9,156 nucleotides of DNA from a virus (taxonomy: Duplodnaviria > Heunggongvirae > Uroviricota > Caudoviricetes): the IMG/VR virus record IMGVR_UViG_2579778919_000004, positions 1-9,156 of that record; one strand, given 5' to 3'. Positions 2,312 to 8,667 of the stretch are shown piece by piece. The translations under genes were made by a program, and so were the position numbers. The notes beneath the pieces are model-generated. The model worked only from the letters and a program-made list of their open reading frames with translations. It was not told the DNA's origin and made no database searches. Every line of letters starts with the position of its first letter. The stretch's first letter is position 1.

Positions 2312-2461
2312 TCACACCACGTCAAGGCCACGGCAGTGGCACCACGTTTCGAACATTCGTTTAACCACTTCCCGGCAGTAGAACCCTTCCTGATCCCTAG
2401 AGAGGTCGTAGCGGTTGCTGTAACGCTGGCGCACCCATATTTCAAATGCCTTGTGCATCAT
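2312..2461 (-). CDS. Small hypothetical protein (49 aa), translated by hand; absent from the ORF track, probably because it is short
   Basis: Manual translation of the minus strand gives MMHKAFEIWVRQRYSNRYDLSRDQEGFYCREVVKRMFETWCHCRGLDVV. The ATG at 2459-2461 overlaps the stop of the upstream gene and follows GGAGGTGAA. It fills an otherwise unexplained 155-nt gap in a tightly packed operon. Confidence 0.4.
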   Translation of the reverse strand: MMHKAFEIWVRQRYSNRYDLSRDQEGFYCREVVKRMFETWCHCRGLDVV

Positions 2462-2769
2462 TTCACCTCCGCAGATAACGTCGTCACAATTACATGCTGG
2501 CGCGCCTTGGGCTTTATCAGAAAAATAGCCTTGTCATACCTGAGTCCGTATCCACCTTCACGTTCGCAGCGTGCGACTGAGGCGCACAAAGAGCGGGGAA
2601 TACCTTTCTTGCTGACATCAAATACCCAGGCGTTTTTGAGATCGAGGATCAGATTTCCTACATCGCCACCAATGCGTTCGATATAGCGTTCAATAGCGTG
2701 AACAGTCACCATGTAGTGGCGAAACTGCACACTTCCTGAGGCGGTCATTATTGGTGTAGTGGTGGTCAT
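2458..2769 (-). CDS. Hypothetical phage protein (103 aa from the ATG at 2767-2769)
   Basis: The track ORF 2458..2805 begins further upstream, but GGAGGTGAAGTG-ATG places the likely start at 2769, overlapping the stop of the upstream gene (ATGA). No recognisable domain. Confidence 0.7.
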   Translation of the reverse strand: MTTTTPIMTASGSVQFRHYMVTVHAIERYIERIGGDVGNLILDLKNAWVFDVSKKGIPRSLCASVARCEREGGYGLRYDKAIFLIKPKARQHVIVTTLSAEVK

Positions 2770-3260: not shown

Positions 3261-3481
3261 CGTGCCGCCTCTCGCTGGATTGTCTTGTGGGCTCGCAACA
3301 TATCGCGGGATTTTCCGGACAAAACCGTCTTCATGAAGAACATTCCACTGCGGTTTGCAACTATTCCTGGAGTGCAGATCAGCGTGGCGTCTACCACCCG
3401 GTTATGTTTACGGAATTCAAACACCGTGCTGGTGATAACGATGTTCGCCACGGCGCCGTAGTCCTGGTATTGGATTTTCAT
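3257..3481 (-). CDS. Hypothetical small phage protein, 74 aa
   Basis: ATG at 3479-3481 preceded by GAGGAG with an 8-nt spacer; overlaps the stop of the upstream clamp-like gene (ATGA). Confidence 0.7.
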   Translation of the reverse strand: MKIQYQDYGAVANIVITSTVFEFRKHNRVVDATLICTPGIVANRSGMFFMKTVLSGKSRDMLRAHKTIQREAAR

Positions 3482-4044
3482 GCCAGATGCTCCTCAACAA
3501 TTTTGAAAGCATCATCACGGCATGGCATCACGACGAACTCAGGGTTACCGTATGTAGTGTTGATCACTGGATCGAACTGAATGCGTACCGCTCCAGCCTC
3601 ACCGGAAGGGCGTAACTGGATGGGAATAAACTTTCGCTCGCGACCAAACATCTTTTCCGGATAGCTGAGGTATTCAGCCTGGATAACCGGATTGATACTG
3701 AAATCCACTTTTTTCGGGATGACGCGTTCCATATCAGGAAAACGACCATCAACAAGTTTGATGCCAGTGATCAAGATCCGACGCTCGAACGTGTCGCGGT
3801 GAATGGCAAAGGCTTCTTTGTTGAATACCAGTTCAGTGGTTTCCGCTTTCGCCGGAACCGGTCCTTCAAACTGGACGATGATGTTTTTCTTCGTCCGGAT
3901 GCCGTGCTCCATGCGCAGTGCTACATGCCCGTTAGTTGACTCGATATATTTCGGAGTGATGTGCACACCATTCAGGTAGTAACGGACATCATTTTTTGCA
4001 GCGCATACCAGAGCTGCGCGAATGAGTTTCGACTGGATGATCAT
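3478..4044 (-). CDS. Truncated DNA polymerase III beta sliding clamp (DnaN)-like protein, 188 aa, corresponding to clamp domain II plus an abbreviated domain III
   Basis: Three colinear motifs match E. coli DnaN as I recall it: DVRYYLNG (DnaN domain II, with flanking K-LI-A and T-GH-LA context), KLVDGRFPD..RV.PK (DnaN TSKLVDGRFPDYRRVLPK) and the C-terminal VVMP.R (DnaN ends AAYVVMPMRL). The ORF is about half the length of DnaN (366 aa) and lacks domain I. Strong tandem SD (GGAGGTGGAGG) before the ATG at 4042-4044. Confidence 0.7.
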   Translation of the reverse strand: MIIQSKLIRAALVCAAKNDVRYYLNGVHITPKYIESTNGHVALRMEHGIRTKKNIIVQFEGPVPAKAETTELVFNKEAFAIHRDTFERRILITGIKLVDGRFPDMERVIPKKVDFSINPVIQAEYLSYPEKMFGRERKFIPIQLRPSGEAGAVRIQFDPVINTTYGNPEFVVMPCRDDAFKIVEEHLA

Positions 4045-4871
4045 GCCTCCACCTCCACGAAGATCTCTTTCGGATCCTTACGCAGAACGAAGCCACCAAA
4101 TTCAGGATGTTGCCAGCGCTTGCGTTTACCGCTTGGGGGAACGGATTCTTCCAGCAGCACCTGAAATGCGTGAATGAACGATTCACGGTGTACGCACAGC
4201 CCACGAACTCCCGGCAACTGTCTGGAGGGCAGGTTTGCGAACTGAACAAGACGACGGCACGAAGGATCGGACAGACTGGTTTCCCATGACACTTTGTGTA
4301 CCGGAACGAATTCGGCATCGGTATTCACGAATTCAGTCGAACTAATGCGCCGTTGTGGTAGAGAGGAAGATACAGGCGAAGCAGCAACCAGGTTGGTGCC
4401 ACTCACTTCCATTACTGCTTTCATCGTCGCTGATGCGGTTGCTTCGGCCACAACACGGGCCAGCGAAAGAATGTCATGGTTCATGCTGATTTCCTGCTGG
4501 TGTGATTTAGCTACTGGCACTTCTTTGCTGTATGTGCCTGTGGTCATGATGGCAGGGAGTACATCTTCACAAACCCAGTCCTGTACGCGTTCAGCCGATG
4601 GAAGCTGGCTTCGCAGGATAAGGCGGAACAAGTCGGCCTGACCAGCAAGCTGAGTACCGCGCGGTTTTTCACCAAACCCCAATTCTAACGATTCGTTATA
4701 ATCAAGTTTAATCAATGCCTTGCAGTGGTCTTTCAGCGCTTTTGCTGGGTTCGTATAACCGAGGGATTTAGCCAGTTCTACAGCGTCAAACGCTGGCTTT
4801 CCCTCATAAAGAATTCCGCTCATAGAAAAATTGAGTTCTTCTGAGCTAAAGGTCATAAGTTGTTTATTCAT
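4041..4871 (-). CDS. BRO-N domain protein (phage antirepressor-like N-terminal domain) with an uncharacterised C-terminal half, 276 aa
   Basis: The N-terminal ~120 aa shows a BRO-N pattern: FSSEELNFSMSGILYEGKPAFDAVELAKSLGYTNP ... DLFRLILRSQLPSAERVQDWVCEDVLPAIMTTGTY. ATG at 4869-4871 preceded by GAGGGAAATAACG. The C-terminal ~150 aa has no recognisable motifs. Confidence 0.82.
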   Translation of the reverse strand: MNKQLMTFSSEELNFSMSGILYEGKPAFDAVELAKSLGYTNPAKALKDHCKALIKLDYNESLELGFGEKPRGTQLAGQADLFRLILRSQLPSAERVQDWVCEDVLPAIMTTGTYSKEVPVAKSHQQEISMNHDILSLARVVAEATASATMKAVMEVSGTNLVAASPVSSSLPQRRISSTEFVNTDAEFVPVHKVSWETSLSDPSCRRLVQFANLPSRQLPGVRGLCVHRESFIHAFQVLLEESVPPSGKRKRWQHPEFGGFVLRKDPKEIFVEVEA

Positions 4872-4882
4872 CGTTATTTCCC

Positions 4883-5461
4883 TCAGTGCATAACTGGCAT
4901 TTCTGGCATGCCGTTGGCGTTAATCTCTCCGATGTAGTCATCGTGAAGCATCTCAAGTCCTTTTCGCCCAAAGGGTGACATCCTGAATCCGCACCCCGGA
5001 TCCGCAATCACCATGTCCTGATACATGCGAAGGGCTAGGGCTGAACCCTCGCAAACGCCATATTTCTCTATGGCGATGCTTTCCACATGGTTAGCGAGAG
5101 AAAAACGCAGTGGACCGGGGTAGATACTCAAATTTCCTTTCTTACCCGAATAAATAACTGCGATATCAACGCCGCCGTCACCGTTAGGAACCTCAACCAT
5201 GCCGTTCTTATCCTTCTCTTCGTTGATGAATACTGTTGCTACCAGCCAGCGCCACAGAATGAGTTCTTTCTCTGCGCCTAAAGAAACCAAACCAGCTGCC
5301 ACGGCATCCATAATGCAGGCCAACCAACGCAGCCCCTCTGAGTTGCGGGAGTCAAAGCGCGAACCATCGAATTGTTTAACCGCGCCAGACCAGCCAATAA
5401 CGCGAGTTCCGATCTTGATGCCGTTTGGCGTAGTTTCTGGCGCGTCGTAATTGCTGCTCAT
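4883..5461 (-). CDS. Hypothetical phage protein, 192 aa
   Basis: ATG at 5459-5461 preceded by GGAGGG with a 6-nt spacer; overlaps the upstream stop (ATGA). No recognised domain. Confidence 0.78.
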   Translation of the reverse strand: MSSNYDAPETTPNGIKIGTRVIGWSGAVKQFDGSRFDSRNSEGLRWLACIMDAVAAGLVSLGAEKELILWRWLVATVFINEEKDKNGMVEVPNGDGGVDIAVIYSGKKGNLSIYPGPLRFSLANHVESIAIEKYGVCEGSALALRMYQDMVIADPGCGFRMSPFGRKGLEMLHDDYIGEINANGMPEMPVMH

Positions 5462-5880
5462 CGAATACCCTCCGGTTTACTGGCCTGTAGTTCGTCAACC
5501 TCTTTAACGAAGCGGTCGTGCATGGCGTCCCACTTCTCACACCATTTCGTCATGTCACGCTTAATGGCCAGAATGCGGCGAAGACGTCGAACACAGCGCT
5601 GGTGGGCTCCGATGTACTCAACTGTTGTGCCTCCTCGCTGCCAACAATTCAGCTCTGGATTGAGTGGGTGGACTGCCTGCACATCCGGGTGCCGCTGCTC
5701 GAAGCCGGAGCGATAAAACGCTTCTGAAGTCATAAAGAACGCCAGATAGCGGATCGCCGTATCTCGCGTGAAGCATTTTTTGATACGACCGTGGCGTACT
5801 GCCACGAACAGTGGGCCAACTGGCGTATCGTGTTTCTGTAATGCAAGGTCAATCATGCTTACGGTGCGTTTATCGTTCAT
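5458..5880 (-). CDS. Hypothetical phage protein, 140 aa, with four Cys and a basic stretch (possible metal- or nucleic-acid-binding)
   Basis: ATG at 5878-5880 overlapping the upstream stop (ATGA). Cys at KKCF, NCWQ, HQRCV and KWCEKW; arginine-rich RCVRRLRRILAIKR. No recognised family. Confidence 0.72.
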   Translation of the reverse strand: MNDKRTVSMIDLALQKHDTPVGPLFVAVRHGRIKKCFTRDTAIRYLAFFMTSEAFYRSGFEQRHPDVQAVHPLNPELNCWQRGGTTVEYIGAHQRCVRRLRRILAIKRDMTKWCEKWDAMHDRFVKEVDELQASKPEGIR

Positions 5881-6098
5881 TTCCGATCCTTAACTTTGCT
5901 GTATCGCTCGTGACTCATTACTTCCCAGTTCTTTCCGCCATCGCGGGAGAGTAGCCGCCAGCGGTGATTAACCTTGAGGCTCAAATTACCGGAGCCGTGC
6001 ATACGGCAGGGGTGAATGCGCCTTGCTCTGAACTGGCTTAAAACGTGTGCTGCTTTGAGGTGAACCCACTCAGGAATTCGAATTGCTGTCAGTGCCAC
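5877..6098 (-). CDS. Hypothetical small phage protein, 73 aa, with a probable GTG start
   Basis: The first codon of the track ORF is GTG, not ATG, and is preceded by AGGAG with a ~7-nt spacer. The 5' end overlaps the 3' end of the upstream gene by 29 nt. An internal start is an alternative. Confidence 0.55.
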   Translation of the reverse strand: MALTAIRIPEWVHLKAAHVLSQFRARRIHPCRMHGSGNLSLKVNHRWRLLSRDGGKNWEVMSHERYSKVKDRK

Positions 6099-6321
6099 CA
6101 GTTAGCTCCTGTATACGTAACCCGGCTTCGCGAGCCATTTTGATAAAAGTGTCCAGTGCGCAAATATGTTCGTCGTCGAGCAGCCGGCGGTCGCATGTCA
6201 CACGCCCTTTTTCTATGTAAAGAACCACGCGTCCGGTGAAATCCGGAAGCACATGCAGATCCACGTTGAGGACTGGGGGGGGGATCTGCATTCCGTGCAT
6301 AATTGTTTGTTGTGAGGCCAT
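6070..6321 (-). CDS. Hypothetical small phage protein, 83 aa; contains a C9 homopolymer in its coding sequence
   Basis: ATG at 6319-6321 preceded by GGAGGAATTAACTG. The codons for IPPP (ATC CCC CCC CCA) form a 9-nt C run, seen as G9 on the + strand at ~6275-6283. Confidence 0.65.
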   Translation of the reverse strand: MASQQTIMHGMQIPPPVLNVDLHVLPDFTGRVVLYIEKGRVTCDRRLLDDEHICALDTFIKMAREAGLRIQELTGGTDSNSNS

Positions 6322-7434: not shown

Positions 7435-7560
7435 CTCATTGGCTCCGTTGTTTGCCGATGAAATGAGAATACTTAAGTATTAATTGAAGGTCAATGGTAT
7501 TAATACAAAAAGAATAATAGTTTTCTTATGTATTTGTTATTGAAGATTATTTTAGTAATA
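7435..7560 (-). promoter_or_regulatory. Predicted leftward early promoter and operator region (PL/OL analogue)
   Basis: On the minus strand: TTGACC (-35; + strand ggtcaa at ~7489-7494), a 17-nt spacer, then TATTCT (-10; + strand agaata at ~7466-7471), about 25 nt upstream of the ATG at 7434. A perfect 14-bp palindrome AATACTTAAGTATT (~7468-7481) overlaps the -10 and spacer, and a second palindrome GTATTAATAC (~7497-7506) lies just upstream of the -35. Both share the TAATAC half-site found in the cI-cro intergenic region. Confidence 0.4.
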
Positions 7561-7598
7561 AAAAAGCCGACGCTATGGTCGGCTTGGTGCTTTTTTGG
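7559..7598 (-). terminator. Rho-independent terminator downstream of the repressor gene (hairpin flanked by an A-run and a T-run, so potentially bidirectional)
   Basis: AAAAAA-AAGCCGAC-gctatg-GTCGGCTT-ggtgc-TTTTTT: a perfect 8-bp stem with a 6-nt loop. On the minus strand the stem is followed directly by TTTTTTATT, about 20 nt past the repressor stop. Confidence 0.6.
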
Positions 7599-7605
7599 CA
7601 GCGGA

Positions 7606-8298
7606 TCAGAAGATTGTTGATACCCAAAACAGTCTTCCTAAAACTTCAAGACTATCCATGTCTACTTCTTCGTCAGGGTATTCATCAGAGTTGTAGCTTC
7701 TGATTGTCACCTTATCTGGCCCAGATCTGTAGAGGATTTTTAACCTTTTCCATCCACCTTGGTTGATGCCGTAAATTTTACCATCCACGATACGCTTGTC
7801 ATGGCAGTTTATGGCAACAGTTGAGCCATCAGCGATCACTGGCTCCATGCTATTTCCGTGTGCAGCAAAGCATAGAACGCCATCACCATCACTATTAGCT
7901 CCCACCTTTCGCAATGTTGCTTTGGAAAATCTAAGTTTTTTTCCATTGTAATCATCATTAAGGGCGCTGCCATCTCCACATGCGAACTCGATATCCTTCA
8001 AGTAAGGCACCTCTACCTCATCATCCTCAAGCGGCGTTTGCTTATCCCATGGATCTATACCAAACATTCTTTGTTCTGGCGTTTTTGCTGGCCCCATGGT
8101 GCCTTCACCAGTGCTTAACCATATGGGATCTACATCCAGTGCTTTGGCTATATCCACGATTTTTCCGCTGGACTGAGCTTTTCCTGAGGTTAGTTTTTGT
8201 ATGGCCCCCTGGCTTACCCCAACCCTATGCGCTAATTGACTTTGAGTAGCCCCAGCATGAGCCATCGCCAGCCTTAGTCTTTCTGCAAGTGTGTTCAT
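7606..8298 (-). CDS. CI-like prophage repressor: N-terminal XRE-type HTH plus C-terminal S24 (LexA/UmuD-like) autopeptidase domain, 230 aa
   Basis: N-terminal HTH (QSQLAHRVGVSQGAIQKLTSG). C-terminal S24 signatures: GNSMEP (catalytic Ser in a G-x-S-M context) and downstream WKRLK (candidate catalytic Lys). Candidate autocleavage site Cys-Gly in FACGDG, as in UmuD. ATG at 8296-8298 preceded by GGAG. Divergent from a cro-like gene. Confidence 0.9.
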   Translation of the reverse strand: MNTLAERLRLAMAHAGATQSQLAHRVGVSQGAIQKLTSGKAQSSGKIVDIAKALDVDPIWLSTGEGTMGPAKTPEQRMFGIDPWDKQTPLEDDEVEVPYLKDIEFACGDGSALNDDYNGKKLRFSKATLRKVGANSDGDGVLCFAAHGNSMEPVIADGSTVAINCHDKRIVDGKIYGINQGGWKRLKILYRSGPDKVTIRSYNSDEYPDEEVDMDSLEVLGRLFWVSTIF

Positions 8299-8424
8299 CT
8301 TAGTATCTCCGATTTTTATGCATATTTAATACCACAGGATTAACCATGGCAAGCGGATAATACTTGATTAATTATTCCTTTGGTATTATTTTATATCTTT
8401 AATATTAATACTAAGGGCTTTGTT
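8299..8424. promoter_or_regulatory. Divergent immunity control region (OR analogue) with candidate PRM (leftward) and PR (rightward) promoters and repeated TAATAC-type operator half-sites
   Basis: AT-rich 126-bp intergenic region between the divergent repressor and cro-like genes. TAATAC or its complement occurs at ~8327, ~8358, ~8383 (complement) and ~8406. Imperfect palindromes: TAATACCACAGGATTA (~8327-8342), GGATAAT..ATTATTCC (~8355-8378), and CCTTTGGTATTA with TAATACTAAGGG (~8377-8417). Candidate PR: TTGATT (~8364-8369), 17 nt, TATTTT (~8387-8392). Candidate PRM on the minus strand: TTGCCA, 17 nt, TTAAAT (+ strand ~8347-8352 and ~8324-8329). Confidence 0.55.
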
Positions 8425-8667
8425 ATGACTGATGAGGTGTTTGAATCCCCAATGGCGAAAGCCGTGTACGTTGCTGGTGGTCAAAGTTCGCTTGCTAAAA
8501 AGGTTGGCGTTACGCAAGGGGCCGTCTGGAAGTGGGTCAGGGGGATCAAGAAAGTTTCTCCGGTCCATGCAGTGGCAGTATCAAACGCAGTTAATGGAAT
8601 TGTTAAGCCTCATGAACTGCGGCCTGATTTGCCGACTCTTTTCCCGCACCCGGGCAATGAGGTGTGA
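8425..8667 (+). CDS. Cro-like / YdaS-family HTH regulator, 80 aa
   Basis: ATG at 8425 preceded by AAGGG with a 7-nt spacer; the track start at 8380 is a TTG inside the operator region and was rejected. The segment AVYVAGGQSSLAKKVGVTQGAVWKWVRG ... ELRPDL resembles Rac prophage YdaS as I recall it (VVGGQSALARLLGVSPPSVNQWIKG ... ELRPDI). Divergent from the repressor. Confidence 0.8.
   Translation: MTDEVFESPMAKAVYVAGGQSSLAKKVGVTQGAVWKWVRGIKKVSPVHAVAVSNAVNGIVKPHELRPDLPTLFPHPGNEV

Follow-up and report, generated by a model that had tools for sequence, protein, structure and literature searches.

Few phage regulators are as common, or as poorly understood, as the BRO, Rha and KilA-type proteins, to which the names "antirepressor" and "KilA" are routinely misapplied. 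One such protein of 276 amino acids is encoded in the DNA analyzed here (the window, a stretch of 9,156 nucleotides from IMG/VR record IMGVR_UViG_2579778919_000004), and an identical protein, ESA25883.1, carries the deposited name "KilA protein [Escherichia coli SCD1]". The initial annotation had recognized a BRO-N domain at its N-terminus, no familiar motif in the last ~150 residues, and a possible functional link to a clamp-like gene directly downstream. The question raised by this locus is what the C-terminal half of the protein is, where else it occurs and what it may contribute to the action of the whole protein.

Prophage context and gene boundaries

The window covers the left arm of a lambdoid prophage in its integrated state. 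It contains a tyrosine integrase (697-2010), a DUF1233 excisionase (2066-2302) and a long leftward series of small, overlapping, functionally unannotated open reading frames, to which the 276-residue frame belongs, as well as a cI-type repressor gene with HTH and Peptidase_S24 domains (7606-8298) and a divergent YdaS/Cro-like gene (8380-8667). A terminator-like hairpin follows cI (7564-7585). Downstream of it, on the minus strand, lies a candidate pL-like promoter, TTGACC-17-TATTCT (7466..7494), a consensus match only; it is the likely source of a leftward early transcript that would include the gene studied here. The same prophage type, located beside yecN and a DUF72 gene, is present in two of 5,426 complete E. 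coli genomes.

The gene itself occupies 4041..4871 on the minus strand, with an ATG start at 4871 and 276 codons followed by a TGA stop. A GAGGG Shine-Dalgarno sequence, read directly from the sequence, is placed 9 nt 5' of the ATG (4880..4884, minus strand), and the reading frame begins 11 nt after the preceding 192-residue frame. Since this ribosome binding site overlaps the TGA that ends the upstream frame (4883-4885), the gene has no promoter of its own; scans of the region near it found neither a dedicated promoter nor a LexA box. At the other end, an ATGA at 4041-4044 combines its stop codon with the start codon of the following 188-residue frame. The codons of residues 266-276, which together with the stop (4041..4076, minus strand) form a tail unconstrained by dN/dS, hold the GGAGGTGGAGG ribosome binding site and the ATGA overlap that serve this downstream gene. 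The DNA of the tail also represents a ~28-nt repeat of gene junctions that is present in three copies. Apart from such junction repeats, a search for repeated DNA that could act as binding sites returned nothing but short repeats that probably arose by chance.

An N-terminal Bro-N head

The BRO-N call of the initial annotation was confirmed by Pfam, in which Bro-N (PF02498) matches residues 22-106 with an E-value of 4.9e-15 and 56.4 bits, above the curated cut-off of 25.6. In the full-length AF2 model residues 5-111 fold as a domain (pLDDT 66-85), and we assign residues 1-111 (4539..4871, minus strand) to this swappable head, which is acidic with a pI of 5.2. Bro-N is the sole Pfam match of the protein at E<=0.1. 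Neither KilA-N (PF04383) nor Rha (Phage_pRha, PF09669) was matched, and the deposited name KilA is unsupported because the KilA-N domain is absent from the Pfam result. PHROG families labelled "anti-repressor" align to residues 1 to ~140 only. The literature treats both Bro-N and KilA-N as domains that bind DNA (PMC8096241), and by analogy DNA binding is predicted for the Bro-N head here.

A C-terminal module behind different heads

When the C-terminal 162 residues were searched alone, Pfam gave nothing at E<=10, including ANT/KilAC (PF03374), while the best E-values were 0.13 in PHROGs and 0.12 in NCBIfam. Comparison with PDB sequences, both as a single sequence and as a profile, gave nothing meaningful. 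No PADLOC model matched the protein or the products of its neighbors, and membership of these genes in a defense system was rejected on this result. The description of the C-terminal part as unrecognized thus holds across all five collections, and so does the absence of the standard ANT domain that would have marked an ordinary antirepressor. The same is true of its family, where none of 102 members matches ANT at E<=0.5.

Homologs are nevertheless present. With residues 115-276 as the query, 303 were retrieved, nearly all of them 250-290 amino acids long, and in BLAST comparisons against the full-length query the homology breaks off sharply at residues 121-131. The clearest case is a Rha-headed protein (P0008) that is 97% identical over residues 131-276 and unrelated N-terminal of that. 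Heads of the Rha type were assigned to 81 and of the Bro-N type to 36 among 116 full-length hits; in a Pfam census of 101 members, Phage_pRha was found in 72 and Bro-N in 26, with the C-terminal part again outside any family. Overall, Rha heads account for ~70% and Bro-N heads for ~30%, and a KilA-N head was seen once, in a distant relative (P0129) that joins it to the module. More distant Rha-headed relatives retain the signatures SD..CR.L...IP and RWxHPxxGxF.

The distribution of the module is narrow. Only 25 clusters with the module, 14 of them full-length and one of them the KilA-N-headed P0129, came out of an exhaustive profile search through 1.84 billion representatives, and its range is the Enterobacterales (Citrobacter, Salmonella, Enterobacter, Klebsiella, Kosakonia, Superficieibacter, Erwinia, Yersinia and Serratia). 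Most close relatives of the 276-residue protein belong to the Citrobacter freundii complex. Neither the gene nor the module was found in sequenced phages (INPHARED) by megablast or tblastn. An apparent two-gene form, in which the module seemed to be split off (L003/L004), was dismissed as a 1-nt frameshift in the linker, and other short stand-alone forms sit on tiny contigs; for these reasons, such forms are unusable as evidence that the module can act autonomously. From residue ~125 onwards the protein constitutes one evolutionary cassette, which other Enterobacterales prophages place behind a Rha or, rarely, a KilA-N head.

Anatomy and predicted fold of the module

The module is preceded by a linker (residues 112-130; 4482..4538, minus strand) which by BLAST holds the recombination junction with Rha-type relatives at residues ~121-131. 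Its first element is a nearly invariant helix, HDILSLARVVAEATASATMKAVMEV, at residues 131-156 (4404..4481, minus strand), evident in the alignments and modelled as a helix of low pLDDT; it is a probable oligomerization or docking element. A second linker (residues 157-183; 4323..4403, minus strand) is variable, rich in P, A and S, prone to indels and disordered, with pLDDT below 50. It leads to a predicted core at residues 184-242 (4146..4322, minus strand) and a basic extension, SxPPxGKRKRWQHPEFGGFxLRK, modelled as a beta-hairpin at residues 243-265 (4077..4145, minus strand). Invariant residues of the hairpin are K251, R252, W253, P256, F258, F261 and L263, and those of the module further include D202, C205, R206, L208, P215, F232, S243 and P246.

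Structure prediction of the C-terminal domain, which the initial annotation had named as a way forward, produced a core with a winged-helix fold of the excisionase/MerR type. In the module-only AF2 model, built from a 102-sequence alignment, residues ~183-270 are confident (pLDDT >90) and run in the order strand, helix, helix, wing, strand, helix, followed by the beta-hairpin and a terminal helix; a helix of low confidence and a disordered linker come before. The core elements are a strand at 188-190, helices at 191-198 and 202-211 (the latter with SDPSCRRL), the wing, a strand at 226-228 and a helix at 229-242. The full-length model, with a pTM of 0.38, shows the folded Bro-N domain, the helix at 131-156 and disordered linkers, and the confidence of the C-terminal domain is lower there than in the module-only model, the alignment being shallower. 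The low pTM and the disordered linkers indicate that the domains are independent of one another.

Three structure searches agree on the fold, with Pukovnik Xis, pSK1 Par, RacA and BldC among the matches. Foldseek against the PDB recovered this same set with target-normalized TM scores of 0.59-0.72 at E-values that are not significant, and the superposition spans the whole of the target domain (53/54 residues). In a viral structure library the matches were proteins named "Excise", "HTH DNA binding" and PrtN, with probabilities of 0.9-0.99. CbpM and RppC, which have the same fold and bind proteins rather than DNA, were also among the structural matches. On the models, then, residues 184-242 have an excisionase/MerR-type winged-helix fold. 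The HTH_17, MerR and Phage_AlpA profiles of Pfam match neither the query nor any family member, and homology to these winged helices is unproven for this reason. The strand-helix-helix-wing-helix topology is shared with Pukovnik Xis (4j2n), pSK1 Par (8csh), RacA (5i41), BldC (6amk), TorI (1z4h) and PrtN-like proteins; unlike these, the domain here carries the additional KRKRWxHPxFGGF hairpin and a terminal helix, lacks a profile relationship, and follows a conserved helix at the C-terminal end of a larger protein. With a DUF1233 excisionase already encoded by the prophage, the domain is unlikely to act as an excisionase itself. The globular C-terminal domain is basic (pI 9.2) and, given its invariant R206, K251 and R252, probably binds DNA.

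Selection and conservation

Pairwise dN/dS values were computed against five homologous loci (L002, L005, L006, L008 and L009). The invariant helix gives 0.03-0.12, the hairpin 0.06-0.13 and the Bro-N head, compared with Bro-N-type loci only, 0.03-0.10. For the winged-helix core they are 0.04-0.08 against L002, L005 and L006, and 0.29 against L008. The linkers reach 0.18-0.9, and the last ~10 residues about 1. Purifying selection everywhere outside the two linkers and the last ~10 residues indicates that the whole reading frame is real coding sequence, and the C-terminal half is a discrete, portable module under purifying selection.

Conservation is uneven within the module. Identity across the helix stays at 81-96%, Rha-type relatives and those from Yersinia and Serratia included. 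In the Yersinia and Serratia relatives only ~50% of the core is identical, as opposed to 81-85% of the helix and 70-74% of the hairpin. Such a pattern would be expected of a core that provides a variable specificity and of a helix and hairpin that serve a constant task. The extreme conservation of the helix also suggests a conserved protein partner, a point against the DNA-binding model, which names none.

The clamp-like neighbor

Directly downstream lies a reading frame of 188 residues with one beta-clamp-like domain (3478..4044, minus strand). Its resemblance to clamps is weak: TIGR00663 dnaN (E=1.2e-5) and PF02767 (E=0.002) both score below their curated cut-offs, and phrog_947, "processivity factor", matches with 3e-8. 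The best PHROG is phrog_3007, whose label "RusA-like resolvase" is probably wrong. The initial annotation had read the position of the two genes as a functional link. The adjacency itself is real and frequent, with the ATGA overlap at this locus; in 15 of 20 loci with the module, the next gene downstream is a clamp-like homolog. These 15 include loci from Yersinia, Serratia and Klebsiella, module identities down to ~50%, Rha heads, and different upstream and flanking genes. The link beyond adjacency fared less well. The clamp-like gene is absent from 5/20 loci, among them that of E. coli EC2001, whose module shows 83% identity. Of the sequenced phages, 248 carry a member of the clamp-like family and not one of these (0/248) has the module; their clamp-like genes sit among genes for primase/helicase, dUTPase, methylase, ParB and endonuclease VII. 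Fels-1 has a degraded clamp-like copy and no module. The two genes show no co-variation of subtypes, identities of module and clamp-like protein being 53% and 82% in one locus (L020) and 65% and 31% in another (L003). The neighboring 74- and 140-residue genes are equally syntenic, and ATGA overlaps are common to most gene junctions in the operon. The adjacency is best explained by conserved gene order, a better account than an obligate partnership.

Possible functions of the protein

Iyer, Koonin and Aravind reportedly described, in 2002, the class of phage regulators that arise by shuffling BRO, Rha and KilA-N domains. The protein studied here resembles these regulators in having an N-terminal Bro-N head and an exchangeable second module, and differs from them in that this module matches no catalogued partner (ANT/KilAC, T5orf172 and others) and is confined to Enterobacterales prophages. 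On balance, and with somewhat better than even confidence, we favor the view that it is a two-headed member of this shuffling class that binds DNA as a regulator or architectural protein and is made from the early-left transcript of a lambdoid prophage. Both ends of the protein are predicted to contact DNA. Site specificity would come from the exchangeable head together with the rapidly diverging winged-helix core, and a constant function from the invariant helix and the basic hairpin; this function may be self-association, contacts with the backbone or minor groove, or both. The protein would be produced from the leftward, pL-like early transcript following induction or infection and would bind DNA in a bivalent or oligomeric form, as a regulator or an architectural factor. 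In such a scheme the recurrent clamp-like neighbor would reflect the conserved gene order of a prophage lineage and not an obligate partner.

A different division of labor is known from Listeria. AriS-like regulators combine a constant C-terminal domain with alternating AntA/B, Bro-N and pRha heads, and their halves are separately active; in AriS itself (LMRG_02920), encoded by comK prophages, the ANT/KilAC C-terminus inhibits the host SOS response and the heads regulate the phage (PMC9043618). Our protein is likewise a two-domain early phage protein in the size range of ~260-280 residues with a constant C-terminus and alternating heads, and this analogy keeps alive the idea that it is a dual-function regulator, in which the constant module would bind some conserved protein of the host or the phage (one of SOS, replication or division, for example) and the head alone would bind phage DNA. 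That some proteins of the same fold, such as CbpM and RppC, bind proteins is a point against the DNA-binding view. However, the C-terminus here is a helix with a winged-helix-fold domain that has no sequence relation to ANT/KilAC, its basic domain carries a KRKRW patch typical of nucleic-acid binders, and DNA binders form the majority of its structural neighbors, so that we regard this reading as unlikely, if worth keeping in mind. A protein partner nearer at hand would be the clamp-like protein, which a DNA-binding neighbor might position or load on DNA. The overlapping genes and their adjacency in three quarters of the loci speak for it; loci without the clamp-like gene, clamp-bearing phages without the module, independently varying subtypes, equally conserved 74- and 140-residue frames and the generic nature of the ATGA junction all speak against it, and we consider such a partnership distinctly improbable. 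We attach even less weight to the thought that the module is a new host- or phage-directed effector comparable to the SOS-inhibiting ANT domain of AriS, perhaps forming a previously undescribed three-gene early cassette with the clamp-like and 74-residue genes that would act on DNA replication or repair.

The expectation of antirepressor activity, which came with the BRO-N call, also deserves comment, the more so as the PHROG families that match the head are labelled "anti-repressor Ant". A classical antirepressor would inactivate a CI-type repressor, either that of its own prophage or that of a co-resident one, and known Ant-type proteins do include some with Bro-N heads (PMC9043618). The database label and the occasional Bro-N-type head are what our protein has in common with P22 Ant, P1 Ant1 and Gifsy GfoA. 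Yet these labels stem from the head only. Unlike those antirepressors, the gene has no ANT domain and no separate immunity or LexA-controlled locus, lying instead inside the early-left operon; the resident repressor is self-cleaving, having an S24 domain, and needs no antirepressor. The identity of the module is also unlinked to that of cI: 82% and 33%, respectively, in L005, and 83% in L002, which has no cI match. The expectation is therefore left without specific support, and an antirepressor role seems to us very improbable. The two-headed DNA-binding regulator or architectural protein is the reading that we retain.

Implications

Domain shuffling in phage regulators was already known, and the present case is another instance that overturns no concept. 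What is new is the definition of this C-terminal cassette, with its boundaries, invariant residues, predicted fold and narrow distribution in the Enterobacterales, for which the databases searched hold no family entry, together with its exchange among three kinds of heads. Defining the module corrects the annotation of these proteins and supplies a construct map for experiments.

Results and Discussion

The Bro-N-headed protein encoded at window 4041-4871 (minus strand) was deposited under the name 'KilA protein' (ESA25883.1), which is unsupported because the protein has no KilA-N domain. For its homologue in E. coli G3/10, the RefSeq start is placed 15 nt downstream; the upstream ATG of the gene has a better ribosome-binding site than this RefSeq start. 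In two independent metagenome assemblies (L003, positions 3960-4000, and L004), an identical 1-nt frameshift in the inter-domain linker breaks the reading frame in two, leaving one ORF for Bro-N and another for the C-terminal module. The latter could restart at a methionine equivalent to M130. This frameshift could represent a real allele or a sequencing error common to both assemblies.

A direct repeat of about 28 nt was detected in three copies at gene junctions on the minus strand (window 2452-2479, 2763-2790 and 4038-4065). Each copy contains the codons of a C-terminal '...VEV(E/K)', which form a GGAGG ribosome-binding site, together with the following gene's start (an ATGA or overlapping one). 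These repeats may act as a translational-coupling signal or may mark where mosaic modules were joined by recombination. The tail of the Bro-N-headed protein that is encoded by the repeat evolves neutrally at the protein level.

The family of the clamp-like gene directly downstream (phrog_3007; window 3478-4044, minus strand), which also includes the genes of phage loci L021 and L022, was found in 248 sequenced phages. The annotation of its members is inconsistent: some are called 'DNA polymerase III beta subunit', some 'RusA-like Holliday junction resolvase' and others hypothetical. The RusA name seems to be an annotation error that has spread from record to record. In the Serratia loci L008 and L012 (6420-6824), the module gene and the clamp-like gene are about 400 nt apart, and this spacer presumably holds an extra small gene. 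In the Enterobacter-type prophages L017-L019, the gene immediately upstream of the Rha-headed module gene encodes a Band_7 (SPFH) protein (2130-2957). The virulent phage Skarpretter (L021) also has a Band_7 gene (439-1290), positioned three genes upstream of its clamp-like gene. Band_7 and the clamp-like gene may form a recurrent association.

Elsewhere in the window, the gene in the cro position (8380-8667, plus strand) was assigned to the YdaS_toxin family (PF15943, E=2.1e-17), and its match to P22_Cro is weak. On the minus strand, an ORF of 73 amino acids (5877-6098) matches a ParE-like toxin domain (PF24732, E=2.3e-20), and the same ParE_like gene is also present in the related prophage locus L018. 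An 83-amino-acid ORF belonging to phrog_340 (6070-6321, minus strand) lies upstream of the ParE-like ORF and overlaps it. This ORF could be the cognate antitoxin, in which case the two (5877-6321) would be a toxin-antitoxin pair within the early-left operon, the leftward run of small overlapping ORFs that includes the Bro-N-headed gene.
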